IMG/VR virus record: IMGVR_UViG_3300026183_000930 | Coordinates: 60,222 to 124,221 of that record | Length of the DNA: 64,000 nucleotides | From: a virus | Direction: 5' to 3' (one strand) | In this document: piece by piece, positions 6,292 through 36,328 of the stretch | Numbering within the stretch: the first letter of the stretch is position 1 | How the letters are laid out: each line of letters opens with the position of its first letter | The notes under the pieces: generated by a model | What the model saw: the letters and a program-made list of their open reading frames with translations, nothing else | The model's database searches: none | What the model was told of the DNA's origin: nothing | Program-made: the position numbers and the translations under genes

Positions 6292-6588
6292 TTAATCTGT
6301 AACTTTGATAGTGTACTCAGAGAAAGGTGGGTAGTTATTGATTGCTGTTTCCAAACTTGAAGCAGTCCAACCACTGCTTGTACGCTCAACTCCAAGTGAC
6401 ACAGTGTTGTTTTTGATATCTCCCACATAAGAGATTGTGGCTCTCAAAGCCACACAGTTCACAACATAACCGTAATCTGTTTTTGAAATGTTTTTTGGTT
6501 CGCTGTCTTCAAAGAAACTTATGTTGTAGATATGATCTGCAGATGTTTCTTTGTTTTTAGAATTTTTATGATGCTGTTTGATTTCCAT
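6292..6588 (-). CDS. Hypothetical protein
   Basis: 98 aa ORF overlapping the upstream gene, same strand. Confidence 0.5.
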   Translation of the reverse strand: MEIKQHHKNSKNKETSADHIYNISFFEDSEPKNISKTDYGYVVNCVALRATISYVGDIKNNTVSLGVERTSSGWTASSLETAINNYPPFSEYTIKVTD

Positions 6589-7012
6589 TAGTACCTGCCT
6601 GCATTTCTTCGTATGTTCTGAAATCTGTTGCAGTTTCTAACGGCACTGGGTAATAAATTTCGCAACCATTTTCTCCATCTTCAGATACTTCAATTTTCAT
6701 ATCTCGTTTTGGATATTTTTCGCTAATTGTTTTATGTAAATCATCTGCCATCATTTCGCAACTCTTGTAATCTAACTCAAGTGTTTTATCATCATACAAT
6801 CTTTCTAACCATCTTTTAAACTGAATAAATTCAATATCTCTGTCATCATGAAATACTTCAATAGACACTTTGAAATGAAATATATGTCTGTGTGGATAGC
6901 CTAAAAATGAAACATCATCCCATTCACCTGTTGCTAGGTTTGGATCATCCAATGCCGCAGGGTATTTGTGAATTCCTTCTTTTCTAAATGTTACCCAAAT
7001 CAGTTTTTTCAT
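6566..7012 (-). CDS. QueD/PTPS-like T-fold protein (possibly DpdL-like CDG decarboxylase)
   Basis: EGIH...FLGYPHRHIFHFKV...DRDIEF...SCEMMA...VSEDGENG: a His-rich metal site in a tunnel-fold layout. Confidence 0.6.
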   Translation of the reverse strand: MKKLIWVTFRKEGIHKYPAALDDPNLATGEWDDVSFLGYPHRHIFHFKVSIEVFHDDRDIEFIQFKRWLERLYDDKTLELDYKSCEMMADDLHKTISEKYPKRDMKIEVSEDGENGCEIYYPVPLETATDFRTYEEMQAGTNGNQTAS

Positions 7013-8474: not shown

Positions 8475-9221
8475 TTAGTTGCTTGTCCTTGCAGGTAATA
8501 CATACTCATACAAACCAATACCTGAATCAATTGCAATTTTCATTGCACCTTGTTCTGCAAAAGATATTGATGCTTGTGAAGTATCACTTAATTTCAAAAT
8601 ACTCAATGTTTGTGCTAAAGGCCAACTCCATCCTCTTTTGATTTCTGTAGTTACTCCTTTACTGATTGGTATTTCTACTCTGTCATTTGATCCATCACCA
8701 ATATAAAACTTTAATGTGTCACCATCAGTTTTTGCAACAAATGTTGGTTGAACACTGCTCATCACTCCAGCAAAGTAGCTCAAATCTTTTAAATTTTGTT
8801 GTGTGGGTTGAATTGTCAAATCCCAATTTACACCTTTGAACTTAACAGTCTTAAGTTTTTCTTCAATCAACTGCGATACCATAAATCTATAATTTGCTGT
8901 GTATCCATTGCCTGATGTAAATTTTAATTCTTCTGGCACTTGTTCGCCATTTCTTTCATTTGTAACAACTTCAATGTTTGCTGTCTTGTCAGCATATCCT
9001 TCAAAGTTTAAATATCCTGCTAATACTGGCAGTTTACCTAAACCCATTGTGCCTTTAAATTCACTTACAGGATTATGTAATTTTCCTTTAAGAACAACTG
9101 TTCTATCATCATCCATTGCTTCAATTTCAGTTGCAGTACCATCGCCGCCATTTACTTTGACTGATTGAATAAAACCTAATGAATGAGTGTGTTTGACTAT
9201 GTCTAAGAGTACATCCCTCAT
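8475..9221 (-). CDS. Putative DNA sliding clamp (gp45/PCNA-like)
   Basis: 248 aa, directly downstream of PolB, C-terminal YEYVLPA strand as in clamps; a clamp loader is also in the window. Confidence 0.6.
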   Translation of the reverse strand: MRDVLLDIVKHTHSLGFIQSVKVNGGDGTATEIEAMDDDRTVVLKGKLHNPVSEFKGTMGLGKLPVLAGYLNFEGYADKTANIEVVTNERNGEQVPEELKFTSGNGYTANYRFMVSQLIEEKLKTVKFKGVNWDLTIQPTQQNLKDLSYFAGVMSSVQPTFVAKTDGDTLKFYIGDGSNDRVEIPISKGVTTEIKRGWSWPLAQTLSILKLSDTSQASISFAEQGAMKIAIDSGIGLYEYVLPARTSN

Positions 9222-9286: not shown

Positions 9287-12001
9287 TTATCCAATTTCAA
9301 ATATGGAATCAAAGTTATTAACATGTTGCGTTTCTTTTAATTCCCAACCCAATACTCCAATTAAGTTTTTAATTTTCTGATCAATAATGGTTTTTTCCAT
9401 TTCTTCATGATCAAATGGTAACTCTTTAAACCATCTTGGTAGATTCAGTTCATCAATTGGGTAAGCAATTGATGTATAATTCATTGGATTGGGTTTGAGT
9501 TTACACACAATAACTTTTTGTCCATCCATAATAGGTAAACTGTATCTATCTCTGTAGGCTTTTCTAAGATCATTCCAATTTAAACTGGCTCTAACATGTC
9601 CTGGCATAATTGGTTTTTTAATTGCATTAGTATTGTCCAAATTTGCCATACTTGCTGTTTGATTATTATATGCAGTAACAATTCCCAAATACTTGGTCAA
9701 ATTGTTTACTCGTTTAGGTGTTCCTTTTTCCCAACCGTCTCTTTTTCCAAATTCATTTTTAAAATCAGCAATCATATCAAAACAATCTTGTTTTGTTTTA
9801 CCAATTAGTACCATTGTTAATAGTTCTTCAAGAAATCTCTGTACAAATTCTGGAGTATCTGATCTTTTTAGATCAACACCCATTGCTTTTATTTTACCGG
9901 GCTTACCATCTATATCTTGTCTGTTGCCTTCTAAGTCATAAATTAATGCCGCATATCTTTTCTTTGTGATATACAATCCTGACTCAGCAACAATTTCTCT
10001 ACCTGCTTGGATAATCTTACCTGCTTCTGTTGAAACATTAAATGAGTTAGTCATAAAACTTGGAAAAGAATTATTTACTTCATTACCAATTTGATCATAC
10101 AGTGATATTACTGAATCTTTGGTCCATGGCACATGACCTGCTTCAACATCTTGCTTAACTGATGGATATGCACTAAAATAAACTGAATCAGTGTCACCAT
10201 ATATAATTGATTCTCCAGTGTGATTATAATCATTGCAGATTATTTGGTTTGTTTGTGATGCCATGTGTTTTGTGATTGTTCTTCCTGACAGTGTTACTGA
10301 TTGACCAATACGAGTATCAAAAAATCTACAGCCTGGATTTAGAATAGCACCATACAATGAATTCAAGTTAATCTTTTTAACAAGTTGTCTTTTGTCCCAA
10401 AACTCTCGTTGTTTTTGATTTTCTGCTTCACGCATATTCTTTTGCATGACTTTTCTTTCTGAATACCAAAATTCAAGCAAACCAGGAACAACTGCTTTGA
10501 CGTCAGTTCTAAAAATAGTACCATTAGCACTCAAGCACCAATCTTGTCCTGATTCAAAAATAATCTTATACCATTCTGCACCACTTTTTGAATCTGAGAA
10601 TCCATCTTCAAAATCACAAACAATTTCTACACCAATATCTTTTTCAATAACTGCTTTGTATTCTAATGTACCAAACAAACCTTCCCAGGCATCTGCGGCT
10701 GACTTGCCTTCTTTCATTTTGTTGTCAATATACTTTTTAGTACTTTCTAATCTTAGTTGTCCTACAATGGTTTCCGGACCCATATTCAAACTTCTAATCA
10801 CACTTGGATACAGTGAGTTAATATCTAAACTGCCAATCCAATTGTGTAATCCTTTTTTAGGAAATGCCACATAGGCTCCAACAGCAGGTGTTGTATCAAC
10901 ATTGTCACCTTTCTTTCTGTCTGGAATAACAAATCCTCTTTTGTGTGATTCATTGATAATTGCTTGTTCAGTAACTGCTACAGCACCCATTGTAGTTTGT
11001 AGTAGCACTGTGTTAGCATGAGCCAATTCATTTGCTAGATCAATAAATTTTAATTTGTCATCAAGTTTGGCCAACAATGCCACGTCTTGTCTTGAATATG
11101 CAATAAACTTTTCAAAGTCATTGTTATATAACTGATCAAGTGTGCCATCATATGGAACTTTTTTTTCACCAATTTCATAATCACCAATTGCATCAAGTCT
11201 ATATGAATGCATTTCATGATATGTGTATTTTCTGTACAGTTCTAGATAATCTAAATGCACACGACCAATCAAGTCGTATGTTTCTTGCTCGTTACCATAT
11301 TTGATGTATTTTCTTTTTCTTGGATATTTGTCCCATAAGCAATATCTTGATAGATCAGCTCTGCTGAGAATCAATTGTGTCCTGTTAATAATGTAAGGAA
11401 TATCAAATCCTTCTGAGTTCCATCCACTCAATATATCAGCGTCATCAATAAGTTTTAAAAACATATCAAGAAGTTCTTTTTCATCATGACACAACACAGT
11501 GTTGTCATACTTGACTGAAATTGCTTCTGCTATTTCTTGATCTAATTTCTCAGGTTTCAAACACAAAGTGATCAATCGTTGATCTTCAGGTAACCAATTC
11601 AAATAGAGTGTTATGGCTGTGATTTTTTCATGTGGATCATGTGCAGGTGCAAAACCTCTATCTTTGTTGAAGTCTACCTCAATATCAAAAAAGCACACAT
11701 GAGGAACAGGAGAATCAATTCCCAAATAGTTTTCTTCCAAACATCTAAAAATTGGGTTTATATCAGATTCATGCAGTTTTTGATGACTGTATAGTTTTCT
11801 TTCTCTATCAAATTCTTTGATATGTTTTGTTGAAAATCTTGACACTGGTCTACCGTATATTGATCTGTGTTTTCCTTTTGGATCTGGATAATAGAAAACA
11901 TAGTTTGTTGAGTATTGTCGATATTCTCTTTTGCCTTTTACTCTTTCAACTACATTAATTCTGTCTTTGTCTCTTTCCAGAAATGCATCAATATAACTCA
12001 T
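9287..12001 (-). CDS. Family B DNA polymerase (gp43-like)
   Basis: Exo motifs FDIE, GWNSEGFDIPY, YSRQD; polymerase motifs DINSLYPS, KINLNSLYG, YGDTDS, KKRY. Confidence 0.97.
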   Translation of the reverse strand: MSYIDAFLERDKDRINVVERVKGKREYRQYSTNYVFYYPDPKGKHRSIYGRPVSRFSTKHIKEFDRERKLYSHQKLHESDINPIFRCLEENYLGIDSPVPHVCFFDIEVDFNKDRGFAPAHDPHEKITAITLYLNWLPEDQRLITLCLKPEKLDQEIAEAISVKYDNTVLCHDEKELLDMFLKLIDDADILSGWNSEGFDIPYIINRTQLILSRADLSRYCLWDKYPRKRKYIKYGNEQETYDLIGRVHLDYLELYRKYTYHEMHSYRLDAIGDYEIGEKKVPYDGTLDQLYNNDFEKFIAYSRQDVALLAKLDDKLKFIDLANELAHANTVLLQTTMGAVAVTEQAIINESHKRGFVIPDRKKGDNVDTTPAVGAYVAFPKKGLHNWIGSLDINSLYPSVIRSLNMGPETIVGQLRLESTKKYIDNKMKEGKSAADAWEGLFGTLEYKAVIEKDIGVEIVCDFEDGFSDSKSGAEWYKIIFESGQDWCLSANGTIFRTDVKAVVPGLLEFWYSERKVMQKNMREAENQKQREFWDKRQLVKKINLNSLYGAILNPGCRFFDTRIGQSVTLSGRTITKHMASQTNQIICNDYNHTGESIIYGDTDSVYFSAYPSVKQDVEAGHVPWTKDSVISLYDQIGNEVNNSFPSFMTNSFNVSTEAGKIIQAGREIVAESGLYITKKRYAALIYDLEGNRQDIDGKPGKIKAMGVDLKRSDTPEFVQRFLEELLTMVLIGKTKQDCFDMIADFKNEFGKRDGWEKGTPKRVNNLTKYLGIVTAYNNQTASMANLDNTNAIKKPIMPGHVRASLNWNDLRKAYRDRYSLPIMDGQKVIVCKLKPNPMNYTSIAYPIDELNLPRWFKELPFDHEEMEKTIIDQKIKNLIGVLGWELKETQHVNNFDSIFEIG

Positions 12002-15131: not shown

Positions 15132-15134
15132 ATG

Positions 15135-15968: not shown

Positions 15969-16003
15969 ACACATAATATAACATGAATTTGTAAAAAGTC
16001 AAG

Positions 16004-19246: not shown

Positions 19247-20320
19247 TTATCTCCCAAATGTTGTATCTTCAGGTGCTGGTCTTTCACCCAAAGGAATGTT
19301 GTAATAAAATATTTTTTCGTTACGATATATTCCAATTTTTATAATATCGCCTGGATCATAATCCCATAATGCTTCTATAAGTTCAATCTGTGTTGAAATT
19401 TTAGTATCATTTACAGAAACAATAAAGTCACCTTCTAGTAACCCTATTTCTTTTGCTGGCTGGCCATCAACTAACGATGAAATATAAATTATTGTGTCAA
19501 TACCGTTGTCAAGCATTTTTTGATATAGTTCTTCATCTTCTAAGCCACCCATTGCTATACCAATCGAAGGTCTTTGATGTATGCCTCTGTCAATCAATCT
19601 TGTTACAACCCTGTCAACAAGTTTTGCAGGAATACTGTAACCATACCCAATATAAAATTTTGTAGGTGAAAATATTAGAACATTAACTCCAACTACTTCT
19701 CCGTCTTCGTTAAACAAAGGACCACCACTGTTGCCTGGATTAATCACTGCGTCGGTTTGTATATAGTTAACAAAACTGTCAGCCGGATTAGGTCTATGAG
19801 TTGCACTCACAACTCCGCTAGTCAATGACCATACCATTGATAATCCATGACCATATGCATAAACATCATTGCCAAGTTCTACAGGCTGTTTTGCAAATTC
19901 TAAAATTTCGTGAGGCTGATTTGTGTTTACTTTTAATACTGCAATATCAATACTTTTGTCATAACCAACAACTGTTACATTCTTTATTGCAAAAGGATAA
20001 TGAGGCATCCATATTTGAATATTATCCATATTACGAATAACATGATAATTAGTCACAATGTGTTTGTCATTAATCCAAAATCCTGTGCCCATGCCTGATA
20101 AATTTCTTTCTAGTTCTTCTGTTTTTGGAGGATTTTCTGGATTAAGAAATTTTTCAAACTTTTCTGTAGACCCTTGATCTGGTTCTACAAGATCTTCGCT
20201 ACTGGCATTGTATACTAATACAATTCCTTTAGATATTTTTTCCCAATCAAGATTGTTTTCATGTGCATTGACATTTATTGGTAATACTATTAAACATAAA
20301 ATTAAAAAAACTCTTATCAT
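19247..20320 (-). CDS. HtrA/DegP-like serine protease with PDZ domain
   Basis: Signal peptide, TNYHV, DIAVLK, IQTDAVINPGNSGGPL and C-terminal PDZ. Confidence 0.92.
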   Translation of the reverse strand: MIRVFLILCLIVLPINVNAHENNLDWEKISKGIVLVYNASSEDLVEPDQGSTEKFEKFLNPENPPKTEELERNLSGMGTGFWINDKHIVTNYHVIRNMDNIQIWMPHYPFAIKNVTVVGYDKSIDIAVLKVNTNQPHEILEFAKQPVELGNDVYAYGHGLSMVWSLTSGVVSATHRPNPADSFVNYIQTDAVINPGNSGGPLFNEDGEVVGVNVLIFSPTKFYIGYGYSIPAKLVDRVVTRLIDRGIHQRPSIGIAMGGLEDEELYQKMLDNGIDTIIYISSLVDGQPAKEIGLLEGDFIVSVNDTKISTQIELIEALWDYDPGDIIKIGIYRNEKIFYYNIPLGERPAPEDTTFGR

Positions 20321-22977: not shown

Positions 22978-23850
22978 TTACGTTCCCCAGGCGTTTCCGA
23001 AGATATCGACGTGTAATCTAGGTGTGTATCTCCAGCCTCGTTCCATTGCGAGTTCGGCCACTCGTTTAGTGTTGAGTTTGTACTCTTCTGATCGTCCGCC
23101 GAGTGGCATGATGTAAACCGGAACTTCAATACCTTGTTTTGTATACTCTTGTACAGCTCTGGTAACTTCATCCACGTCATCATTATCAGAAACCACAAAC
23201 TTGAAATACATATCACTGTTAGCCACACTGTAATAACTATGAGCAACATTAGGCTTAATAGCATCACTCCAAGACTCGCCTGATACGGAAAGTTTCGGAG
23301 AGCAACTAAAAGTAAATTGTATCCTTGTTTGATTTTCAAGATAATCTCTGAAATCATTGTGTAAAGTCTGTGTTGTATTTGTTTCAAATGTGACATTTTT
23401 CAAATCTCTCATTCTAGGATGTTCAAATAATTCAATGTAAAGTCTTTGCCATCCCAACAAAGGCTCTCCACCTGTCATAATAAGATGAACGTCTTGACCA
23501 TTTGACATTGTCCATTTGCCTTCTGGTGTTAAACTTAACAAATGATCTACAACTTCATCTACTGTTTTATCCATCATGTATTTTTTAAATTCAGGATAGA
23601 TACTAGCATACGTATCACAACCAGTATGCACAATTGGTAAATCTTCAAATTTTTCTACTTTGTCTAATATACCATTGTCTAACAGTTCTTTAACTTCTGT
23701 GTTGTATTTTCCTTTGACTGTGTTTTTTGCTATACCAAAGTTCATACAACGAAAATTACAACCAAAGGTACGTAAAAACACACTTGGTACTCCTACAAAT
23801 TTACCTTCACCTTGCACACTGTAAAATGCTTCACTATATCTTAATTTCAT
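22978..23850 (-). CDS. queE: 7-carboxy-7-deazaguanine synthase (radical SAM)
   Basis: EAFYSVQGEG, FLRTFGCNFRC...GCDT, TGGEP, ETN, SPKL, RLH. Confidence 0.88.
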   Translation of the reverse strand: MKLRYSEAFYSVQGEGKFVGVPSVFLRTFGCNFRCMNFGIAKNTVKGKYNTEVKELLDNGILDKVEKFEDLPIVHTGCDTYASIYPEFKKYMMDKTVDEVVDHLLSLTPEGKWTMSNGQDVHLIMTGGEPLLGWQRLYIELFEHPRMRDLKNVTFETNTTQTLHNDFRDYLENQTRIQFTFSCSPKLSVSGESWSDAIKPNVAHSYYSVANSDMYFKFVVSDNDDVDEVTRAVQEYTKQGIEVPVYIMPLGGRSEEYKLNTKRVAELAMERGWRYTPRLHVDIFGNAWGT

Positions 23851-23905: not shown

Positions 23906-24427
23906 TTACTGTTTTAGATTCTCTAAAATAGAGTTAATAATTGGGCTTTCTACTGCGTCTCGTTTCCACCAATCTTCCCATGGATAAACCAACCAAACAT
24001 CTTTTTTGTCCTTGTCAATCGAAGTACCATACCAATCCACTGCAAAATTACTTGGTTTGTTGTAATGTAAACAACAAAACCTAGCATCTAAACCTTTGTA
24101 GTTCTGTAAAATATCCTGTTTTAGTTTTTTAAAAGTGTCTCCTGTATCGCAGATGTCATCAACTATACATATTTTTTCAACTTTTGAAAAGTTTTCAGAC
24201 TGTGTGTTCCAACTTGGATGATCTCTTAATGCCGCTTCAATAGGAACAAAGGGTTTTCCTAAAAAATGGCTTAACATAATTCCTGGAACTAAACCACCTC
24301 TGCTTAATCCAACTATTATATCAGGAACAAAATCATCTTTGTTCATTTTTTCTATTATTAAAGTCAGATAAGATGCAACTGTGGCATGATTAATATATTT
24401 TTTACTCAAAGTCACTGTATACCTCAT
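23906..24427 (-). CDS. Purine (xanthine/guanine-type) phosphoribosyltransferase
   Basis: GLSRGGLVP, PRPP motif IVDDICDTGDT, WLVYPWE. Confidence 0.85.
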   Translation of the reverse strand: MRYTVTLSKKYINHATVASYLTLIIEKMNKDDFVPDIIVGLSRGGLVPGIMLSHFLGKPFVPIEAALRDHPSWNTQSENFSKVEKICIVDDICDTGDTFKKLKQDILQNYKGLDARFCCLHYNKPSNFAVDWYGTSIDKDKKDVWLVYPWEDWWKRDAVESPIINSILENLKQ

Positions 24428-25517
24428 TTACTTGTTTATTAACTTGAACAAACGTTGCACATTTAGGCATGTCCTTTAATCGCCTTGCACCAATATAGGT
24501 ACAACTGCTACGCACACCTCCTAAAATATCTTGCACTGTTGATTCAATTTTACCTTTGTAAGGAATTAGCACTTCTCTTCCTTCTGAAGATCTGTACTCT
24601 TTCATTCCTCCAAAATGTTTGTTGTTGGCCGCTTTTGAACTCATACCATAGAATTGAACAAACTGCTTTTCTTGATAATGAGGTAAGTAGTTGCCATTTT
24701 CTAAACGTGTTGCTTCACCATTAGCAAAATGTTTAGTAATTACTTTTCCGCCGCCTTCATCATGGCCAGCAAACATGCCTCCTAGCATGACAAAATCTGA
24801 ACCAGATGCAAATGCTTTTGATACATCTCCAGGAACAACACAACCACCATCTGCAATGACCATGCCTCCAACACCGTGTGCCGCATCGGCACACTCAATC
24901 ATTCCTGACAGTTGAGGAACTCCAATACCAGTTTTTAATCTAGTAGTACAAACTGATCCTGGTCCTATACCGCATTTTACAATATCAGCACCTTTTAATA
25001 TCAGTTCTTCTGTTGCTCCTCCTGTAATAACATTACCAGCAATGATAGTTTTGTCAGGATACATATCTCTAACTTGACTAACAAAGTCAATAAACCTTTG
25101 ATGATATCCGTTAGCAACATCAATTGTAATAAAATTAATATCTGGCCAACGTCTTAAAATTTCTTGCATGTTAGCAAAATCTTGTGCCTCATCATCTTTA
25201 ATTTTACTTGTTCCAGTACATACACTTACATATTTTAATTTTAATCCATTGCCAACAGCACTTGCCCAATCATCAACTGAATAATGTTTGTTCATAACTG
25301 TTAAAATTCTGTGTTTCTGTAAAACTTTGGCTACTTCAAATGTGCCAACGCCGTCCATGTTGGCGGCCATAATAGGTATGCACTTGAGTGATTTTTTACT
25401 GTGAAGAAAAGTAAACTCTCTTTCCATAACAACATCACTTCTTGATGTTAATACTGATCTTTTGGGTTCTAATAAAACGTCTCTGTAGTCTAATTTAATA
25501 TCTGGTTTAATTCTCAT
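24402..25517 (-). CDS. guaC: GMP reductase
   Basis: [42 protein letters not shown]. Confidence 0.93.
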
Positions 25518-25538
25518 TTTTATAACCTTATAAGAAAC

Positions 25539-25562
25539 TTGTAGGGGGAATTCCCCCTACAA
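25539..25562. terminator. Perfect 24 bp palindrome; terminator or attenuator candidate
   Basis: TTGTAGGGGGAATTCCCCCTACAA between the permease and guaC; followed by GTTTCTT on the minus strand. Confidence 0.55.
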
Positions 25563-25577
25563 TAAAACATAGTCTTA

Positions 25578-26870
25578 TTATACTGCAATGAAGTAAATTA
25601 AACTTACTAGTGCAATAGCAAGACTGCCTCCGTTTAATTCCGCATGTTTACCACTTGCGGCTTTGATAACCACATAGGCTATGAAACCTAATGCAATACC
25701 ATAAGCAATACTAAATGTCAAAGGCATAATTACAGCCGCCAACACAGCCGGAGCATATTCGCTTACGTCATCCCAATCAATATCTTTGAGATTTCTCAAA
25801 AAGTATGTTGCAATGAATATCAATGCAGGTGCAGTTGCAAATGCTGGAATACTCTGTGCCAAAGGAGCAAAGAATAAACACAATGCAAATAATATTGCAA
25901 CTGTGACAGACGTTAATCCTGTTTTTCCACCTTCTTTGATACCAGCACCTGATTCAATATAAGATGTTGTGTTTGAAGTTCCTGCTAATGCACCCACTGA
26001 TGTAGCAACAGAATCTGATAATAAAGCTCTATCAATTCCTTCAACTTCACCGTTTTTGTTTACTTTACCTGTAAGGTTAGCCACAGAAGTCAAAGTACCT
26101 GCTGTGTCCATAAAGTCAACAAATAAGAATGCAAATGCAGTTCCAATAAATCCTGCTGTTGCAATCAAACTAAAGTCTAAACTAAATGCATGAGCTGGAC
26201 TTGGTATTGCACCTGCCACACCATTTAGATCAGATATTCCAAATACCCAAGCAATGATACTCACTGCCAAGATACCAATTATGATTGCACCTGGTACTTT
26301 TCTTTTGTCAAGAATTGCCATCACAGCAAAACCTAAACCTGCAAGTAACACTGGCCACGATGAAATATCACCTAAGCCAACTAATGTTGCTGGATTGTCT
26401 ACCACAATACCTGCATTTTTAAAACCAATGATAGCAAGGAATAAACCTATACCTGCACCAACACCTAATTTCATTGAACGCGGTATTGAATTGATAATAT
26501 ATTTTCTTGCTGGTGTTACACTCAAACCAATAAACACCAAACCTGCAATGAATACTGCCGCTAGTGCCTGTTGAAAAGTATATCCCATACCAAAGATTAC
26601 ACCAAATGTAAAGAACGCATTAAGTCCCATACCTGGTGCTAGAGCCACAGGCCAATTTGCCCATAATCCCATAATTAATGTACCTACCACTGCGGCAATA
26701 ATTGTTGCTGTAAACACAGCACCAAAAGCCATTCCTGTACCTTCTGTTGAAAGTATTGCAGGATTGACCACAGTAATATAGGCCATTGTTAAAAATGTAG
26801 CCAAACCTGCCATTACTTCAGTTTTGACTGTTGTACCGGCTTTAGACAAGCCGAATAGTTTTTCTAACAT
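25578..26870 (-). CDS. NCS2/AzgA-family purine permease
   Basis: TFLTMAYI.VNP, APGMGLNAFF, DTAGT, YIESGAG...GGKTG; highly hydrophobic. Confidence 0.92.
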   Translation of the reverse strand: MLEKLFGLSKAGTTVKTEVMAGLATFLTMAYITVVNPAILSTEGTGMAFGAVFTATIIAAVVGTLIMGLWANWPVALAPGMGLNAFFTFGVIFGMGYTFQQALAAVFIAGLVFIGLSVTPARKYIINSIPRSMKLGVGAGIGLFLAIIGFKNAGIVVDNPATLVGLGDISSWPVLLAGLGFAVMAILDKRKVPGAIIIGILAVSIIAWVFGISDLNGVAGAIPSPAHAFSLDFSLIATAGFIGTAFAFLFVDFMDTAGTLTSVANLTGKVNKNGEVEGIDRALLSDSVATSVGALAGTSNTTSYIESGAGIKEGGKTGLTSVTVAILFALCLFFAPLAQSIPAFATAPALIFIATYFLRNLKDIDWDDVSEYAPAVLAAVIMPLTFSIAYGIALGFIAYVVIKAASGKHAELNGGSLAIALVSLIYFIAV

Positions 26871-26889: not shown

Positions 26890-27570
26890 TTAGTTGCTGT
26901 GCCCTTTCATAGACAAGCAAATTTTATAAAATTCATCTCGTGTTGCTGGATCATCTTTAAATGCTCCTAACATGATTGCAGTTGTCATATCTGACTCATG
27001 CTCTCTTACACCCCTATGTGTCATACAGTGATGTTCTGCTTTCACTACCACAGCAACGTTTTTAGTATGAGCATACTCTTGCAATTCTTCTGCAATTTGT
27101 GTAGTCATCTCTTCCTGTATCTGTGGTCGTTCCGCAATGTGATGAATAATTCTGTTGAATTTACTTAAACCAATAACTTCACCATTTGGAATAATACCCA
27201 CCCATGCTTTACCTACAATGTTTTGAAAATGATGAGCACAGGTTGATTTGATTGATATTGGTCCTGATGTGTACATACTTTTGTAACCCATGTTGGGAAA
27301 ACTTGTGACCTTTGGCATTGGTCTGTATCTTCCACCAAACACTTCTTTGACCCACATTTTTGCCACACGTCTTGCTGTGTCTTTTGTGTTGTGATCGTTG
27401 TCAGTGTCAATTACTAGTGTTTGTAACACATCATAAAACTTATTTTCTACTTCTTGTTGAAGAAGATCAATTTCACCTTCTTTGATATACTCGCTGATAT
27501 TGTCATTGCAATGATATCTGGCCTTTGCTTCTTCAAGTCTTTGTTTGATTTGTTTGCTTATTTCTGTCAT
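26890..27570 (-). CDS. folE: GTP cyclohydrolase I
   Basis: STCAHH, IGLSK..R, QIQE, AEHHCMTHRG. Confidence 0.93.
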   Translation of the reverse strand: MTEISKQIKQRLEEAKARYHCNDNISEYIKEGEIDLLQQEVENKFYDVLQTLVIDTDNDHNTKDTARRVAKMWVKEVFGGRYRPMPKVTSFPNMGYKSMYTSGPISIKSTCAHHFQNIVGKAWVGIIPNGEVIGLSKFNRIIHHIAERPQIQEEMTTQIAEELQEYAHTKNVAVVVKAEHHCMTHRGVREHESDMTTAIMLGAFKDDPATRDEFYKICLSMKGHSN

Positions 27571-27600: not shown

Positions 27601-28641
27601 TTAAGAAGGAATTTTTGTGAGGTCAATCTTCTTATATGCATCGCTATTCAACCAGTTTACTGTATCTTGACATATTTTGTCAATCTCTGAATTTATTGGA
27701 TTCCAATTTAACATTTTTGTTGTTTTTGAAATATCTGCTGAAACATGAGTAGGGTCACCTTCTCTTTTTGGAAACTCTTTCACAGGAATTGTTTTACCTA
27801 ATGCTTTTTCCATCGATGAAACTACTTGTTTAACACTGAAACCTTTGCCGGCACCTACATTAAACACTTCAGCAATAGGTTGTTGTTGATTTTCTAAAAA
27901 GTCATTTGCTAATTTAAATGCTTTTGCAACATCCCATACATGTGTGTAATCTCTAATTGCTGTGCCGTCTGGTGTGTCATAGTCAGTGCCAAATATTGTG
28001 AAGTGTTCTTTTCTACCTGCGGCCACTTCAACCACATTTGGAATCAAATGTGTTGGTTTGATTCTAACTTCACCTATTTCACAATCAGGTGATGCACCAC
28101 AAACATTAAACAATCTCAGTGCAACTGATTTTAAATCATATGCTCTAGCATAATCTTTCAAAACTTCTTCAACCATTAACTTTGATTTACCATAACTTGT
28201 TAAAGGTCTTTTTGATACATCTTCTGTTATTGGTGGTGTATGACCATCTCCATATACAGATGATGTTGAAGCAAAAACAAACTTTTTTACTCCGTGCTTG
28301 ACACACATATCTAACAGTTGAATTGTACCGTAGACATTGTTACGATAATATTTGCTTGGTTCAGTTACCGAAGGACCTACTAAACTGTTTGCCGCTAAAT
28401 GAAAAACACAATCAAAATTGTTTTTTTGAAAAAGTTCATCAAGCATTGGTAAGTCTGCTTCTTTGTTATAATCAAGACTGTGTCCTTGTGCAAATCTATT
28501 TGCAAAAGGTCTTGTTCCTAAGTTTCTATCAATAGATAGAACTTGATATCCACTTTCTAAAAGATATTTGCTAACATGAGAACCCACATAACCAGTTCCA
28601 CCTGTTACCAAAACTTTTTTAATACTTTGAGTTTGCGACAT
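27601..28641 (-). CDS. galE: UDP-glucose 4-epimerase
   Basis: GGTGYVGSH, YGKSK, DYDTPDGTAIRDYTHV. Confidence 0.9.
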   Translation of the reverse strand: MSQTQSIKKVLVTGGTGYVGSHVSKYLLESGYQVLSIDRNLGTRPFANRFAQGHSLDYNKEADLPMLDELFQKNNFDCVFHLAANSLVGPSVTEPSKYYRNNVYGTIQLLDMCVKHGVKKFVFASTSSVYGDGHTPPITEDVSKRPLTSYGKSKLMVEEVLKDYARAYDLKSVALRLFNVCGASPDCEIGEVRIKPTHLIPNVVEVAAGRKEHFTIFGTDYDTPDGTAIRDYTHVWDVAKAFKLANDFLENQQQPIAEVFNVGAGKGFSVKQVVSSMEKALGKTIPVKEFPKREGDPTHVSADISKTTKMLNWNPINSEIDKICQDTVNWLNSDAYKKIDLTKIPS

Positions 28642-29797
28642 AATCTCTATACCTATTTCCGCTTCTTAGCCATTGTTCGCCATGGCCTTGCATGATATCG
28701 ATCATACGGTCGATAGTTCCGTTGTTCCAATCTGAAATTCTTCCTTGATTACCATGTGGTTTTTGCAAAGACATTTTTATTTTGTCAATTGCATCTCTTT
28801 TGCTCCATGGCACATATAATCTTGTGTGATCATTTGCAAATGTTTCAGGGAAACTTCTGTATGCTGGATAAACAACATTACATCCTAATGCATCTGCTTC
28901 ACTTACTGTGTTTGACACCCAATCCTGTAAAGCACAATTGAATAGAACTTTACTTTTGTTTACTAGATCATAATAATCATTCTTTTTGAGATTTTCATAA
29001 ACTTTAAATCTACCATTGGTGCTGATTTCTAAATCTTTTGCTCTTTCAACATATTTGACATTGTTGCTTCTCAAAGGACCTCCAGACAGTATTGCAAACT
29101 CAACATCTGGTCTTTGTTGTAATACTTCTTGTACTATGTCCATAAAAAAGTCTGGTTGTTTTTCTTGATCAAATCTTGCCGCAAACACAACACGATTATC
29201 ACGTTCTTCCCAACTATTGATTTTTGCAACTCTGCTTACTACTTCTTCTTTGCCAAAGCTCAAACCTGATATGTTGTAAATGGGTGCTGACCAATTGGCA
29301 ATTCTCATGTGTGCAACCATTTCTTCATTGGTAGCAAGTATATTCACATTTGGAATTTCATTGCACATCTGTTCATACAAACTCATCCATTTAGCCATGC
29401 CCCAAACATGAACAAAGTCATCTGGGTCTACTGCCTGTGCTAGACATCTCAAATAAATTTTTGGTCTGTGTTGTTCTGGTACTTGACAAAGAATATATGG
29501 TAATGATTCCATACCTGGTTGAAACATGTCTTCGAAAAACACAGCATCTTCAGATGTTACATCACCGTTACGCATCATCTGTACTAGATTCATAATCTGA
29601 CTCATGCCAAAATAACTTCTGCCATGTGCATCTAACACTTGTCCTACGGAAATTGATTTGGTATTATCAATTGTTTCTCCAGGCACAATAACATAATCAA
29701 TGTTTCTTCTTTTAAAAGCTCTTTCTGACCAGTCTTGTAACTGAAGTGTGTATCTTCCCTCATATGGTTCTAATCCCATGTAAAACAGTTTTCTCAT
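28619..29797 (-). CDS. GT-B glycosyltransferase
   Basis: VFAARFDQEKQP, EADALGC.VVYP..SFPE: GT4-like C-terminal domain. Confidence 0.75.
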   Translation of the reverse strand: MRKLFYMGLEPYEGRYTLQLQDWSERAFKRRNIDYVIVPGETIDNTKSISVGQVLDAHGRSYFGMSQIMNLVQMMRNGDVTSEDAVFFEDMFQPGMESLPYILCQVPEQHRPKIYLRCLAQAVDPDDFVHVWGMAKWMSLYEQMCNEIPNVNILATNEEMVAHMRIANWSAPIYNISGLSFGKEEVVSRVAKINSWEERDNRVVFAARFDQEKQPDFFMDIVQEVLQQRPDVEFAILSGGPLRSNNVKYVERAKDLEISTNGRFKVYENLKKNDYYDLVNKSKVLFNCALQDWVSNTVSEADALGCNVVYPAYRSFPETFANDHTRLYVPWSKRDAIDKIKMSLQKPHGNQGRISDWNNGTIDRMIDIMQGHGEQWLRSGNRYRDYVANSKY

Positions 29798-29809
29798 AAT
29801 TTTATACTA

Positions 29810-30397
29810 CTACCTTTCTTGTAATTTGTCAAAGTTTTTTTCAGTCTCTTTTACCATCTCAAAATGTTTTTCCAATGTCCAATCATGAATATTAACTCTG
29901 TGGTTGTGTTGTGTTACAAATTCACTTTCAATACCTGCTTGAATATAACGTTGAAAAGGATTTATCCAACTGGGTGTTTTGGTTCCAAGTCCTTCTTCTT
30001 GTAAAAGTCTATCTGATTTGTTAGACAATTTTACCATAGGCATACACAACACTTGATTAAATGTTAACAAGCCATCAATGTAAGCATCAATCAAAAGATT
30101 TTGTGGTATTAAATGTTCTTCTGTGTATCCTTCATCTTGTACTTGTTCTATGTAATGACATCCCACTTGTTCTAGCACAAGATACTTCTGACATCTACGT
30201 AAAAATAAATTAATTTGTCTACGAGCTTCTTGTGTTTGTTGTGCTGTCAGTTTACCACTTAAAACTTCTTGCTTCATAGCATCACATTTGGGCTGATACC
30301 ATTGATAGAAATCTTTGGTGTTGTCTGTGTTTCTACCTAGCCTTGATCTTGTTGGTGGGGTCCAGGATTCTAACTTTTCAATTTGTTCTGTGATCAT
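29810..30397 (-). CDS. Hypothetical protein, possible HNH/His-Me nuclease
   Basis: EEHLIPQ resembles the (D/E)HxxP motif. Coupled (ATGA-type overlap) to the DGQHR gene. Confidence 0.45.
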   Translation of the reverse strand: MITEQIEKLESWTPPTRSRLGRNTDNTKDFYQWYQPKCDAMKQEVLSGKLTAQQTQEARRQINLFLRRCQKYLVLEQVGCHYIEQVQDEGYTEEHLIPQNLLIDAYIDGLLTFNQVLCMPMVKLSNKSDRLLQEEGLGTKTPSWINPFQRYIQAGIESEFVTQHNHRVNIHDWTLEKHFEMVKETEKNFDKLQER

Positions 30398-31482
30398 GCT
30401 ACTGCCACCATTTCAAGTGGTGACCAGAATCCTTCACACACATTATTTGTTTCAATTTCCATGCTTGATCCTTTACCATGTGTGGGCAATTCAAGTTTTG
30501 TTTGATCATCAGTTTTCATAAGATAAACTTCTCTTATAAAATTACACATGGCCTCAGGTGCTGACCAACTTGCTCCTGGTCTCACATATTCCCATTGACG
30601 TTTGGCTTTGGTATGTGCTGTGTGACTTGAACCAAATTCTGTTTTGATTGGCTTTAAAACTCTTTCACACCAATCATCTGATAACTTTATATTAAGTTCT
30701 CTACTCAAACGTGACAATTCATACAAACCAATATAAACACCTTGATCAACTTCTTCTTGATTAGGAAATGTTTTTGTTATTGACTGCAGAATGTCGTGTA
30801 GTGCTGTTCCAGTCTTATCAAGCTCTATACCTTTGTAAGCATATTTGAAATGACTGAAAAAATGTTTGCCTGTTCCACGTGTGTTTGAGTTTGCTCTTGT
30901 TTTTTTATCTTCAAGATCAATATCAAGTGTGTCAAATTGATCTTGTAGTGTACGAGCTTGTACTGATTTAATTTCTCTTGATCCTAATTTGTATCTTGTC
31001 AAACTGTTTCTATGCAAATCAGCAGGTGTTAATCTTTTTACACCTGTGTCATTCAACAGTTCAAAGGCATATGAGGCAAATGCAGGATCTTCTGTTTCCA
31101 CAGGACAACAAGGCACACTGTCGTAACCTAACAATGCTAATGTCACTATTCTGTGCTGACCATCATATGTGAAAAGTCTTCCGTCCCAAACACCGTCTTT
31201 GATAATTTTTACACCAGCCGCTGGCATACACACACGTGGATCAAATTTACGCATGATGTTAACCACGTGTTTTAGAATAACATCTCGTTGTACTTCGTAA
31301 TCAATCCAAATTGACTCAACTGGTTCCCATTCTACATTTTTTGGAAACCCTAACTTGGAATTATCAATCTTTTGTTTGAATTGATCTAGATGTTGTTCAG
31401 TTATACCAAACTCTTGTTGAAGATTGTTTTTGATTTCTGGCAATATATCGACAAGTTTTTTTGCCAATCTTTGTTGTTGCAT
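30394..31482 (-). CDS. ParB/Srx-fold DGQHR-domain protein
   Basis: YEVQRD, YDGQHR, FELLN motifs. Confidence 0.7.
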   Translation of the reverse strand: MQQQRLAKKLVDILPEIKNNLQQEFGITEQHLDQFKQKIDNSKLGFPKNVEWEPVESIWIDYEVQRDVILKHVVNIMRKFDPRVCMPAAGVKIIKDGVWDGRLFTYDGQHRIVTLALLGYDSVPCCPVETEDPAFASYAFELLNDTGVKRLTPADLHRNSLTRYKLGSREIKSVQARTLQDQFDTLDIDLEDKKTRANSNTRGTGKHFFSHFKYAYKGIELDKTGTALHDILQSITKTFPNQEEVDQGVYIGLYELSRLSRELNIKLSDDWCERVLKPIKTEFGSSHTAHTKAKRQWEYVRPGASWSAPEAMCNFIREVYLMKTDDQTKLELPTHGKGSSMEIETNNVCEGFWSPLEMVAVA

Positions 31483-31564: not shown

Positions 31565-31770
31565 CCTTGTTTTTTCAAGTATTCTTCTTTGGATATGTCA
31601 TAGAAAACTATACAATCATAATCTTCTTTTATCTTGTTAAATATGTCCCAGGATTGTTTTTTGGTGATTTTACCATGATATTTCCAACTGACTTTGTTGT
31701 TTTTAACTTGATATATTTTAATATAGCCTGTAAACTCGTCCATATTATTCAATGTCAAATATTGAATCAA
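31561..31770 (-). CDS. Hypothetical protein
   Basis: 69 aa; true start may be the internal MDEF. Confidence 0.4.
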   Translation of the reverse strand: MIQYLTLNNMDEFTGYIKIYQVKNNKVSWKYHGKITKKQSWDIFNKIKEDYDCIVFYDISKEEYLKKQG

Positions 31771-33217
31771 AATTAGACACTGTTTCTTGTACTACTTTCT
31801 TTTCTTTTTGTACCAGAGCTGGCACTGATTCAACTAGACTGTCAAATGTGGTTGTTTTAGGTGCTCCTGAAAATTTTGCTTTGCTTAATCCGTTTAACAA
31901 TGAACTGTGTTTTTCAATTAATTCAAAAGGTTTTTCAGATTGGAATACTTCTGTAGTAAGATCCACAAACTCCAAAACATTTTCTGGAATACTTTTAACA
32001 TCGTGTGCATCTGTTCTACGATTGGCTTCTTGCACTGCTTCAATCTGTTGATACACATTATGAGCCATCAACAACACATAACTCAAACTGTCCCAACTTG
32101 TTTTTGATTCAAAATCTTCACCTCTACAACAGATATCACCTTCCATGTAACAATCCATTACTGGTGAGTTGTTTACATAAGTTTCATATTCACCTGGAAT
32201 AATATCAGCATACTTTCTATCAAAATTGCCTGCATATTTTTTGTTGTCTTTGGCTTTGTCCATTGTGAATCCAAAACGTGGATTCTTTCTCATCATATCA
32301 AATTCATTAACTGTGTAAACAAGTCCTCTTGCTACGCTGACAAATGCTGATGCTGAATCAAATGACACTTCTATGTTTGGATTGATTTTAACAAGTTCTC
32401 TTTTGATTGCTGTTAACATCACTGCTGGCTCCAGTGCTGACGTACCTAAGAAATGAATCCAATCTTTGCCATTAAACCAACCACCATCTCTCATTTTGAT
32501 CATTCTATACAAGATCAGTTTCCACCATCTCATGTGTTCACCGCCCATAGCCCAACCTTCAAATGCTCTGTCGCCATACACTTTTGGGTCACTAAATGGT
32601 GCCATTGTATCAAACCATTCGTCTGCACTTGCTATGTCATTGCCTTGAATCACATTCAAAAACTTTGTAGCACCCGGAACTCTGTTATTAACAAACCATT
32701 CGTTGTTGTAGGCTGTGTATGCCATACAATCTTTCACAGTGTTAACACCAATACCCAAGTTAACTGAAAAACTTGGTATATCCAAACACATACTCCAATC
32801 AGCAGTGTGTTCTAACCATCTAAGAATCTGCATTCTTATTTCATCGTTTTTGTGTCCTGGTGTAAAAAAATTATCCCAATCAAATTTAAGAATACCTTTT
32901 GCTACCTGAAATCCTCCACTGTCACCTAGTATTACAGTTTTGTCTCTGGGTCTGTCTTGCACAAATGCTTCTTGTACCTTTGACTTTTCAATATCTAATT
33001 TGGCATGCCCTGCCGAATACAAACTCCATTTGTAGTTGAACATTCCTTTGTCATCATACAAATATTTCAAACTGTCTAAGCCTTTAGGCAGTCCTTTTGG
33101 CACTCGGTCTCCCCATTTTTCTTCAGCATTCTTTGATAATAAGTCTGCATAGATAAAACTGATTGCTGGCAAAAACACAGCATAGTCTTTGTTAGATTCT
33201 GTTAAATTTATACTCAT
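31745..33217 (-). CDS. TGT-family guanine transglycosylase (DpdA-like)
   Basis: ILGDSGGFQ, CLD, NVIQG, WAMGG, IHFLG, SFDSAS, HN. Both catalytic Asp positions present; no CxCxxC Zn motif. Confidence 0.8.
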   Translation of the reverse strand: MSINLTESNKDYAVFLPAISFIYADLLSKNAEEKWGDRVPKGLPKGLDSLKYLYDDKGMFNYKWSLYSAGHAKLDIEKSKVQEAFVQDRPRDKTVILGDSGGFQVAKGILKFDWDNFFTPGHKNDEIRMQILRWLEHTADWSMCLDIPSFSVNLGIGVNTVKDCMAYTAYNNEWFVNNRVPGATKFLNVIQGNDIASADEWFDTMAPFSDPKVYGDRAFEGWAMGGEHMRWWKLILYRMIKMRDGGWFNGKDWIHFLGTSALEPAVMLTAIKRELVKINPNIEVSFDSASAFVSVARGLVYTVNEFDMMRKNPRFGFTMDKAKDNKKYAGNFDRKYADIIPGEYETYVNNSPVMDCYMEGDICCRGEDFESKTSWDSLSYVLLMAHNVYQQIEAVQEANRRTDAHDVKSIPENVLEFVDLTTEVFQSEKPFELIEKHSSLLNGLSKAKFSGAPKTTTFDSLVESVPALVQKEKKVVQETVSNFDSIFDIE

Positions 33218-33405
33218 TGTTTTTCTCCTGCCCAGTCTATTTTACCGTTTTCAATTGCTTCATATGTTGCATGGTCACGATCATCAAGAATAATTTCTTG
33301 TTGTAACCCAGCAATAAGTCTTTCAACATCATTTTTGTTTATTGGCTTTTTATTTGTTCCTTTTAACTTTTTCCAAAACATTGTTCTTGATAATCTTTTT
33401 TTCAC
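33214..33405 (-). CDS. Hypothetical protein
   Basis: 63 aa, coupled on both sides. Confidence 0.45.
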   Translation of the reverse strand: MKKRLSRTMFWKKLKGTNKKPINKNDVERLIAGLQQEIILDDRDHATYEAIENGKIDWAGEKQ

Positions 33406-34331
33406 TTTTTATTTCTAATTCTTTCAAGTTCAACCATTGTGGCCGCTAAATTGATTTCAGGGTCAACAACTATAGAATGATTTACTAAACCATTTCTAAT
33501 TGATAATAATGCTTTACCTTTTGATAAATCATCTTCACCAAACCATTCAAGATTCTCATACATTTTTCTATAAACTTTTTCATACTGTTCAGAATCAGCA
33601 TTGTTGATTATAAACTCTCTTGCACTTTTAATATCTCCATTTTGGAACATGGCCACATAAGTTACTTCAACTTCACCTTCTTGTGTGTCACCACTTTGAG
33701 GAACAGTTAATTCACCTGTCTGTGAATTCATTTGACATGTATTAATACATTTTCTTAAATCTGGATAAGTTGCTTTGACATAAGTTTGTAATACTTCAAC
33801 TCCAAACTTAATTTGTTCTTGTGTTAATATTTCACCAACTCTTACTGTGAACATTGTTTCATCTAATTTGAGAATTTTAAAACCTTGACATCTAGAATGT
33901 ATTGCAGGAATAATTCTACGTTCATAATTACAAGTCAATAAAAATCTACAAGTTGATGCATACTGCTCCATTACACCACGCAATGCCGCTTGACCATTTG
34001 GTGATATGTAATCTGCCTCATCAAGTATAATGTATTTGAAATCACCAAAAGGCATTGTTTGTGAAAAGTTTGTAATCTTATCTCGTATAACATCTACAGA
34101 GTTTTCACTTGATGCATTAATTTGTAATACATCACCCCAGTCAACTTCTAGTTCATGTAATAGCAGTTTTGCTAAAGTAGTTTTTCCTGTGCCCGGTGAT
34201 CCGCTAAAAAGTAAATGTGGTATTGCTTTTGATTCAAGCCAAGACATGACTTGACTTTTTTGTGCTTCATCTCTAAAAACGTAATCAGTTACTTTTTTAG
34301 GTCTATACTTTTCTACCCAAAGTTCTTTCAT
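33402..34331 (-). CDS. Clamp loader AAA+ subunit (gp44/RFC-like)
   Basis: LWVEKYRP, GSPGTGKTT, INAS, LDEAD, SRC. Confidence 0.92.
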   Translation of the reverse strand: MKELWVEKYRPKKVTDYVFRDEAQKSQVMSWLESKAIPHLLFSGSPGTGKTTLAKLLLHELEVDWGDVLQINASSENSVDVIRDKITNFSQTMPFGDFKYIILDEADYISPNGQAALRGVMEQYASTCRFLLTCNYERRIIPAIHSRCQGFKILKLDETMFTVRVGEILTQEQIKFGVEVLQTYVKATYPDLRKCINTCQMNSQTGELTVPQSGDTQEGEVEVTYVAMFQNGDIKSAREFIINNADSEQYEKVYRKMYENLEWFGEDDLSKGKALLSIRNGLVNHSIVVDPEINLAATMVELERIRNKK

Positions 34332-35068: not shown

Positions 35069-35422
35069 TTAATATGTTGTACTGCCTACGTTTGTGTCTC
35101 TAGGTTCGTCATCTGAAACCATAAGAATACTTTTACCTTCTGCTAATCGAAGATCAAATATTTCGCCATTTTCTTCTAAATTGAAACCTTCACTCCAACG
35201 ACCATGTTCCATCAGCACCCATTGTCCAACTTTTACATAGTCAATTTTAGAACCCACAGCATACACACGAGCCCAACGTGGATGAATACCACGTTCTGTG
35301 GCATCATCATCTGGTAACAAAATACCTCCAGCAGTTTTTTGTATACCTTTTTGCATATTTCTTACTAGTATTCTGTCACTTAAAGGTTTTATAGGACCTT
35401 TGATACACTGTAATGATGCCAT
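35069..35422 (-). CDS. groES: Co-chaperonin GroES-like
   Basis: IKPLSDRILV, KTAGGILLP, VYAVG, VKVG. Confidence 0.82.
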   Translation of the reverse strand: MASLQCIKGPIKPLSDRILVRNMQKGIQKTAGGILLPDDDATERGIHPRWARVYAVGSKIDYVKVGQWVLMEHGRWSEGFNLEENGEIFDLRLAEGKSILMVSDDEPRDTNVGSTTY

Positions 35423-35821: not shown

Positions 35822-36328
35822 TTATCGCAAAAATTCTTCAATGTTAAGCTCAAATTTAATTGAATCTACTTTATGTACTCCAATTAAGTATAAAATATAA
35901 CTAGAAACACTGGATCCTCTACCTACACCCCATACTATGTTATTTTTTCTCATTGTGTCTATCATGTAGACCATAAAACGCAACACATCTAACATACCAC
36001 GTTCTTCAAACATCTTGTACTCATACATAACTCGAGTTGTTTGAATTTCATTGCTGGTTTTGTTTAAAAGATGCTGTTTGATATCAAGGTCTTTGTACTC
36101 TTGTGTCATGTACCAAGTTTGTTGATTAACTGTATCAAACTCTTCTTGACTTATATCAACATAATTTTTTAATTCAGACAATGACAATGTGTTTGTTGTA
36201 ACTGAATTGTTGTACTGTTCTACAACTGATTTTTCAAATGATGCATTTTCAATTGGTTTGTTTTGATACAACAGTTCCAATCCATCATGCTCATCTAAAA
36301 TACATCTTTTTAAATTATCAAGTCTCAT
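35822..36328 (-). CDS. Stand-alone DnaE (Pol III alpha) fragment-like protein
   Basis: WGVGRGSSVSSYILYLIGVHKVDSIKFELNIEEFLR aligns with DnaE GRGS.AGS...LGIT.VDP..Y.L.FERFL. Confidence 0.7.
   Translation of the reverse strand: MRLDNLKRCILDEHDGLELLYQNKPIENASFEKSVVEQYNNSVTTNTLSLSELKNYVDISQEEFDTVNQQTWYMTQEYKDLDIKQHLLNKTSNEIQTTRVMYEYKMFEERGMLDVLRFMVYMIDTMRKNNIVWGVGRGSSVSSYILYLIGVHKVDSIKFELNIEEFLR

Follow-up and report, generated by a model that had tools for sequence, protein, structure and literature searches.

A minus-strand gene (31745..33217) of a phage recorded in IMG/VR as IMGVR_UViG_3300026183_000930 encodes a 490-amino-acid DpdA3-type DNA guanine transglycosylase, and the disordered C-terminal tail of this enzyme ends in the same short, conserved peptide as the family-B DNA polymerase (PolB) of the same phage. 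The stretch of DNA analysed, hereafter the window, comprises 64,000 nucleotides of a 124,221-base record whose completeness is estimated by CheckV at about 35%. It is a minus-strand gene array with a G+C content of 35%, and all window genes given with coordinates below lie on that strand. With a probability of roughly 0.6, the tail is interpreted as a clamp-docking peptide of the T4 type, which would tether DpdA3 to the PCNA-like sliding clamp of the phage and focus base exchange on clamp-loaded phage DNA. It is put forward more tentatively, at somewhat less than even odds, that throughout a very large clade of jumbo phages DpdA3 rides the clamp, with base exchange coupled to replication and only clamp-loaded (that is, phage) DNA being modified, as it is made.

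A terminal peptide shared by polymerase and transglycosylase

The PolB gene (9287..12001) encodes a 904-residue protein of the T4 gp43 type, which matches PF00136 (E 4.9e-38), PF03104 and phrog_262 (E 1.5e-197) and is about 27% identical to Tequatrovirus gp43. Its C-terminus reads HVNNFDSIFEIG and that of the transglycosylase TVSNFDSIFDIE, each followed directly by the stop codon. The last nine residues are NFDSIFEIG in PolB (residues 896-904; 9290..9316) and NFDSIFDIE in the enzyme (residues 482-490; 31748..31774), where they form the putative clamp-docking motif; eight of the nine pre-stop residues are counted as common, and over the final nine codons, counting the stop, the two genes agree at 24 of 27 bases. 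The enzyme also contains an internal degenerate copy, TTFDSLVE (residues 456-463; 31829..31852), separated from the terminal motif by a stretch rich in K and E. The original prediction, made from the sequence alone, had described this shared tail, its K/E-rich linker and the internal copy, and its coordinates and sequences agree with the translations. Residues 448-490 (31748..31876) are predicted to form a disordered tail: residues 448-486 and 488-490 all have a predicted local distance difference test score (pLDDT) under 50, and the sole predicted helix covers residues 483-486. The gp43 of the T4-like phage UFV-AREG1 terminates in ASLDFLFG, the same h-x-x-L-F pattern as the window tails.

The motif is rare outside these two proteins. 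A six-frame scan of the window with F[DE][SAT][ILVM][FLIVM] gave 12 matches, of which three lie in long frames (two in the enzyme, one in PolB) and nine in plus-strand stop-to-stop frames of 9 to 108 amino acids. Across the contig of 124 kb, F[DNSEGA][DNSEGATR][LIM]F occurs within the last 45 residues of five of the 728 open reading frames (ORFs) of at least 40 amino acids, namely PolB, the enzyme and three ORFs of 40 to 48 amino acids; a search for further FDSIF-type tails, suggested along with the original prediction, leaves PolB and the enzyme as the only carriers among real ORFs of the contig.

The tail had also been expected to be conserved in relatives, and it is. All 32 of the closest relatives of the enzyme carry [FY]xx[LIM]F within their last nine residues, while the linker is variable, and the internal TTFDSLVE copy is kept in 29 of the 32. 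The branch resembling phage PA5oct was sampled as 80 IMG/VR loci (L004-L083), in which other ORFs were counted from 100 amino acids upward. In these PA5oct-like loci PolB ends in N[TN]F..LF[DST]F[ED], and DpdA3 has N.F..LF about 30-38 residues from its end, with an acidic segment behind it that contains another motif, D[DE].L..LE. Within the last 50 residues, F..[LIM]F is present in 76 of 76 PolB and 49 of 73 DpdA3 proteins, as against 0 of 77 clamp proteins and 13 of the 930 other ORFs; the corresponding counts for the strict pattern N.F..[LIM]F are 71/76, 45/73, 0/77 and 1/930. The family tails are enriched four- to seven-fold over shuffled ones (82 of 119 observed, 11.6 expected). The first motif position is occupied by N, T or F rather than Q in nearly all tails. 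Because the internal copy of the window enzyme sits at the position of N.F..LF in the PA5oct-like clade, the terminal copy seems to have been relocated later. The second motif D[DE].L..LE, found in the last 30 residues of PA5oct-like DpdA3, is lost from the clade of the window.

Correspondence between the two tails of one phage was scored by comparing PolB peptides with enzyme tails. The PolB peptide of the window scores 38 against the window enzyme, and the PolB of Vibrio phage 2.275.O likewise scores 38 against its own enzyme (NNTDLFDW versus NNNDLFGW), whereas off-diagonal scores do not exceed 30. In the PA5oct-like clade, PolB peptides score 23.9 against the enzyme tails, and scrambled versions of these peptides score 14.0.

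Two unrelated proteins of about 193 amino acids, encoded at 11557-12141 in L028 and at 12230-12811 in L029 on other jumbo-phage contigs, also have N.F..LF near their ends and may be occasional extra clamp clients. A third widespread client was considered and dropped, as a BLAST search with the L029 protein matched only itself among the loci and neither protein has a homologue in the contig.

The proposed docking partner is encoded directly downstream of PolB (8475..9221; 248 amino acids). No sequence-family match to it was found in Pfam or in PDB profile searches. Its structural model has a pLDDT of 91.5, and the best Foldseek match is PCNA (8dr4_F; E 6.1e-11, probability 1.00); alignment of the model with PCNA by VIA gives a Z score of 18.3 and a root-mean-square deviation (rmsd) of 3.0-3.3 with about 224 of 248 residues aligned. 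The product is, on the strength of this predicted fold, a PCNA-type sliding-clamp protomer, which bears out the assignment made originally. Scores from a language-model atlas, taken as leads only, are 0.93-0.95 for gp45/PCNA in the case of the clamp, and 0.93 for tRNA-guanine transglycosylase (TGT) and 0.90 for DpdA in the case of the enzyme. In both PA5oct and Vibrio phage 2.275.O the order PolB, clamp, DpdA3 is found within about 1 kb, with small ORFs in between (one in PA5oct, two in the Vibrio phage). In the PA5oct annotation a Hef-like homing endonuclease gene divides the PolB gene into two parts, and the homologue of the clamp is called a 'structural protein' on the basis of mass spectrometry. 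Prediction of a complex of three clamp protomers with enzyme residues 431-490 gave a median score of 0.58, and one control with an unrelated 62-residue protein gave 0.62.

The large subunit of the clamp loader, a gp44/RFC-like AAA+ protein (33402..34331; phrog_168, E 1.2e-77; Pfam AAA, DNA_pol3_delta2 and Gp44_lid), is encoded just upstream of the enzyme. The two genes are linked by an ORF of 63 amino acids (33214..33405), to which no family match was found in Pfam, PHROGs or NCBIfam, and each junction is a 4-base overlap. No terminator-like site was found on the minus strand from the clamp loader to the DpdA3 gene. The position of DpdA3 just downstream of the clamp loader thus stands as originally described, in gene order and overlaps; the co-transcription claimed with it is plausible from this layout.

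A precedent for such a tail is provided by T4. According to the available text of Geiduschek and Kassavetis (2010, PMC2988020), gp43, gp55 and gp33 have highly similar, interchangeable C-terminal clamp epitopes, hydrophobic and acidic in character, and that of gp55 is carried on a divergent unstructured linker; the clamp-binding peptide common to the three proteins, which the original prediction had invoked, is confirmed there. By analogy, the tail of about 43 residues would extend from the globular domain of DpdA3, with the last nine residues copying the C-terminal peptide of PolB and serving as a docking motif of the gp43/gp55/gp33 type. This peptide would bind a hydrophobic pocket of the PCNA-like clamp of the phage, which the clamp loader would put on DNA. 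The tether would then keep the enzyme on newly replicated phage DNA, so that it would act at or behind the fork.

Fold, family and substrate of the enzyme

The AlphaFold2 model of the enzyme, built from 83 relatives, has a mean pLDDT of 89.7 and contains a globular catalytic domain of TGT fold in residues 1-447 (31877..33217). Foldseek matched this model exclusively to tRNA-guanine transglycosylases among the matches listed (to rank 50), with a probability of 1.00. Alignment to 2ash_A by VIA-align gives a Z score of 21.0 and an rmsd of 4.7 over 307 residues, and all 50 of the 50 entries listed are TGTs; no DpdA structure is found among the structural matches listed. Residues D99, S100, G102, D146, H255 and D287 are invariant in the 83 relatives, and D99 lies within GDSGGFQ. 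Of these, D99, D146 and D287, together with H255, are candidates for the catalytic residues, as we equate them with those of the familiar TGT motif.

Sequence profiles contribute little to the identification. The enzyme has no usable match in Pfam (up to E 10), PHROGs, NCBIfam, PADLOC or the PDB sequences, and a PDB search with the 31 amino acids around GDSGGFQ returned nothing. The TGT model PF01702 does not match the window enzyme at E values up to 10 and gives weak matches in five of 66 relatives (best E 0.0045), and the DpdA model PF23859 has no match anywhere in the 124-kb contig at E values up to 10.

The family is recognized through phage relatives. In tblastn the enzyme aligns with QCG76197.1 of PA5oct at E 3e-77, with 34.6% identity across 93% of its length, and QCG76197.1 is entered as DpdA3, alongside FolE, QueD, QueE and DpdL, in Supplementary Data S1 of Cui, Hutinet et al. 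(NAR 2023, PMC10516641). Among cultured phages, the closest relatives come from the PA5oct group, Vibrio phage 2.275.O and Sinorhizobium phage Phosso (13 records). At E <= 0.001 there are 6066 family proteins among the 8000 candidates scored, and clustering at 50% identity gives 753 clusters. Neither the profile of this family nor PF01702 matches the records of CP220 and phi19:2 (phiST-type), and because the profile found nothing there, the branch of the window is tied to these type members of DpdA3 via the PSI-BLAST of the published study.

By its predicted fold and its homology, the product of 31745..33217 is a TGT-fold DpdA3-type DNA guanine transglycosylase, which would exchange the guanine of phage DNA for a 7-deazaguanine. 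That the TGT-like enzyme has a DNA rather than a tRNA substrate, as the original prediction had argued, is supported by homology to the DNA-modifying DpdA3 subfamily; earlier publications already cover both this family and its action on DNA. PA5oct DNA is resistant to restriction enzymes that have G in their sites, as stated in the available text of PMC12191111. In the text of PMC10516641, DpdA3 enzymes are credited with replacing all guanine in some phage genomes, their insertion step is placed after replication, and members of the subfamily, which are not named, are inactive in E. coli.

Weighing the proposed clamp tether

Several observations weigh against a clamp tether. The canonical PCNA-interacting protein (PIP) box is Qxx[ILM]xx[FY][FY], and the window tails VNNFDSIF and VSNFDSIF do not conform to it, since Q is absent from position 1 and I-F stands where two aromatic residues are expected. 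The core pattern F..[LIM]F is not present in 24 of the 73 DpdA3 tails of the PA5oct-like loci. Cognate matches are weak in PA5oct and Phosso, whose enzymes score 19 and 12 against their own PolB. A permutation test within the PA5oct-like clade, based on 69 unique pairs of 72 and 5000 permutations, gave a cognate mean of 23.9 versus a non-cognate mean of 23.1; the observed value was reached in 310 of the 5000 permutations and is not significant. Covariation of the PolB and DpdA tails, which had been anticipated, is therefore seen between the major lineages but not within this clade, where the pattern is one of co-conservation.

Enzymes without the tail point in the same direction. The DpdA3 of phage phiST has 259 amino acids and no tail, and this phage has a split DnaE-type polymerase; the phiST-type enzyme was located by annotated gene order and length, and the phi19:2 and phiST copies are 100% identical (tblastn). 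CPT_0056 of CP220, with 258 amino acids, has an end unlike that of CP220 gp43, and we infer from its number in RefSeq, together with a local alignment that is weak, that it is the DpdA3 of this phage. G is completely replaced in phiST DNA and in CP220 DNA (PMC10516641, available text). Because the tail-less phiST enzyme and the presumed CP220 enzyme accompany complete replacement of G, the tail is dispensable in general: it is a feature of the long DpdA3 branch of jumbo phages and no general requirement for efficient modification.

Besides the clamp, another common hub of the replisome (the clamp loader, a single-strand-binding protein or the helicase-primase) might receive the peptide, and PolB and DpdA3 would then be coupled to replication off the ring. 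The peptide is acidic, hydrophobic and protein-terminal, a general style among replisome tails, and the second acidic motif D[DE].L..LE of the PA5oct-like enzymes makes more than one partner likely. In T4, moreover, more than one site on gp45 is open to the gp43 tail, and the loader works on the same face, yet this closest studied precedent puts the C-terminal tail of PolB on the clamp (PMC2988020, available text). A clamp gene, furthermore, is the neighbour of PolB here and stands next to PolB as well as DpdA3 in PA5oct and in Vibrio phage 2.275.O, which makes docking on a different hub unlikely. A ring of another origin, the host beta clamp (DnaN), would be the target if the peptide served to bring phage enzymes to host-loaded clamps, and its core x-[DN]-S-[LI]-F does resemble the bacterial clamp-binding consensus QL[SD]LF. 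This is improbable, as the tails nearly always begin the motif with N, T or F in place of Q and the phage has a PCNA-type clamp and a loader of its own; its PolB is also T4-like, and T4-like gp43 binds its own clamp (PMC2988020).

The shared end might, on the other hand, have no function and be a by-product of composition, or of a recent event of recombination or copying that involved both genes. The identity of 24 of the 27 terminal bases counts against the tether here, since it could also mean recent copying in an AT-rich genome, and a G+C content of 35% limits the choice of codons. Against such an origin, the motif is retained in 32 of 32 closest relatives on a variable linker, recurs with a different sequence in distant lineages, and exceeds its frequency in shuffled tails by a factor of four to seven; an accident of this kind is very improbable. 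Hardly credible, finally, is an enzyme that acts on tRNA and whose tail serves something unrelated to DNA. All structural neighbours listed are tRNA enzymes, with no DpdA structure among the rows listed; however, the protein is homologous to a published DpdA3 (PMC10516641), is linked to DpdL, QueE and FolE genes and sits amid replication genes, PF01702 does not match it, and PA5oct DNA behaves as G-modified (PMC12191111). A T4-type docking peptide directed at the phage clamp remains the preferred interpretation of the tail.

Gene neighbourhood and relation to known systems

Three genes of the deazaguanine pathway are found in the window. A DpdL homologue (6566..7012), predicted to be a 7-carboxy-7-deazaguanine decarboxylase, is 60% identical to PA5oct DpdL (QCG76199.1; E 1.3e-48) and contains LGYPHRHIF, in agreement with the signature LxxxHRHxF from PMC10516641. 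A QueE-like radical SAM enzyme (22978..23850) matches phrog_2076 (E 8.8e-53) and, under their cut-offs, the NCBIfam QueE models. GTP cyclohydrolase I FolE (26890..27570) is identified by PF01227 (E 3.4e-49) and NF006824 (E 6.9e-54). A search of the 124-kb fragment, itself about 35% complete, yielded no QueD (PF01242). Since the window has a homologue of DpdL together with QueE and FolE, the base inserted here is probably 7-deazaguanine itself, with 2'-deoxy-7-deazaguanosine as the product.

Other genes lie among those of the pathway. Between FolE and DpdA3 (27601-29797), a GalE-type UDP-glucose 4-epimerase (TIGR01179, E 2.1e-106) is accompanied by a GT1-type glycosyltransferase, which is homologous (E 4e-10) to gp317 of PA5oct, the protein directly following PA5oct DpdA3; a sugar-bearing deazaguanine is conceivable from this gene content. 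Between QueE and FolE (23906-26870) are a GMP reductase (NF003470, E 3.6e-152), a xanthine/guanine phosphoribosyltransferase-like protein and a permease of the xanthine/uracil family. This set looks like a purine salvage module feeding the deazaguanine pathway, and a phosphoribosyltransferase-like gene is also kept nearby in phi19:2 and PA5oct. Just downstream of DpdA3 (30394-31482) is a 362-amino-acid ParB-like protein, matching phrog_1033 at E 4.7e-5, that recalls bacterial DpdB. Its candidacy as a DpdB equivalent was dropped, as this match stands alone, with no match in NCBIfam or PADLOC and no counterpart next to PA5oct DpdA3.

Elsewhere in the window, host-like proteostasis genes (12900-15974, 19247-20320 and 35069-35422) encode a double AAA+ chaperone of the ClpB type, DnaJ, a PDZ-domain protease of the HtrA type, and GroES. 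A protein of 168 amino acids (35822-36328; phrog_11127) matches only a piece of the NTPase domain of DnaE, the Pol III alpha subunit (PF07733, E 5.6e-12), and Phosso has a similar small 'DnaE-like' gene close to its DpdA3. A protein of 675 amino acids (43465-45492) fuses a CHASE2 sensor to an adenylate/guanylate cyclase domain.

The arrangement resembles that of the T4/RB69 gp45 clients, as far as these are described in the available text, in that unrelated proteins of one phage, the polymerase included, share a short terminal peptide on a variable unstructured linker. It differs in that the second client would be a DNA base-exchange enzyme rather than a transcription factor, its binding being putative, and in that the clamp is nearest in fold to PCNA among the matches listed. 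The PIP-box clients of PCNA include the maintenance DNA methyltransferase DNMT1. Like DNMT1, DpdA3 is proposed to be a DNA-modifying enzyme that a short linear motif holds on the replication clamp and that marks new DNA during synthesis; unlike PIP-box clients, it has a peptide without the canonical Q and double aromatic, belongs to a phage system and would carry out base exchange, not methylation.

Among deazaguanine enzymes, the closest system is the DpdA3 subfamily itself (PMC10516641, available text), with which the window protein shares homology to QCG76197.1 of PA5oct and the companions FolE, QueE and DpdL. Compared with the tail-less type members of phiST and, presumably, CP220, the enzymes of the jumbo-phage branch have about double the length and possess in addition the disordered tail that bears the polymerase-like peptide. 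In the bacterial Dpd restriction-modification system, DpdA, an enzyme of TGT fold, inserts a 7-deazaguanine into DNA with the aid of its partner DpdB, as described in the available text of PMC10164549. The window enzyme is likewise of TGT fold, would insert a 7-deazaguanine into DNA and is proposed to have a partner protein; unlike DpdA-DpdB, it has no match to PF23859, and the proposed partner is a sliding clamp rather than a ParB-like ATPase. Literature searches found no description of a clamp link for DpdA or DpdA3, in keeping with the novelty claimed at the outset, and the main text of the DpdA3 paper (PMC10516641) does not contain the word 'clamp'.

A clamp tether would bear on how the enzyme reaches every G of a genome of several hundred kb and spares host DNA, and might confer the self/non-self specificity proposed originally. 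If the proposal is true, the jumbo-phage DpdA3 enzymes would constitute a new class of sliding-clamp client, and a base-exchange enzyme would join the "tool belt" of the clamp. DpdA3 of this branch would work only together with the clamp and loader of the phage, a dependence that could explain any failed reconstitution of these enzymes without them. The docking tail would also help in engineering deazaguanine DNA in vitro. The enzyme family is large, with 6066 proteins among the 8000 candidates scored and 753 clusters at 50% identity, and the mechanism would therefore be common in nature.

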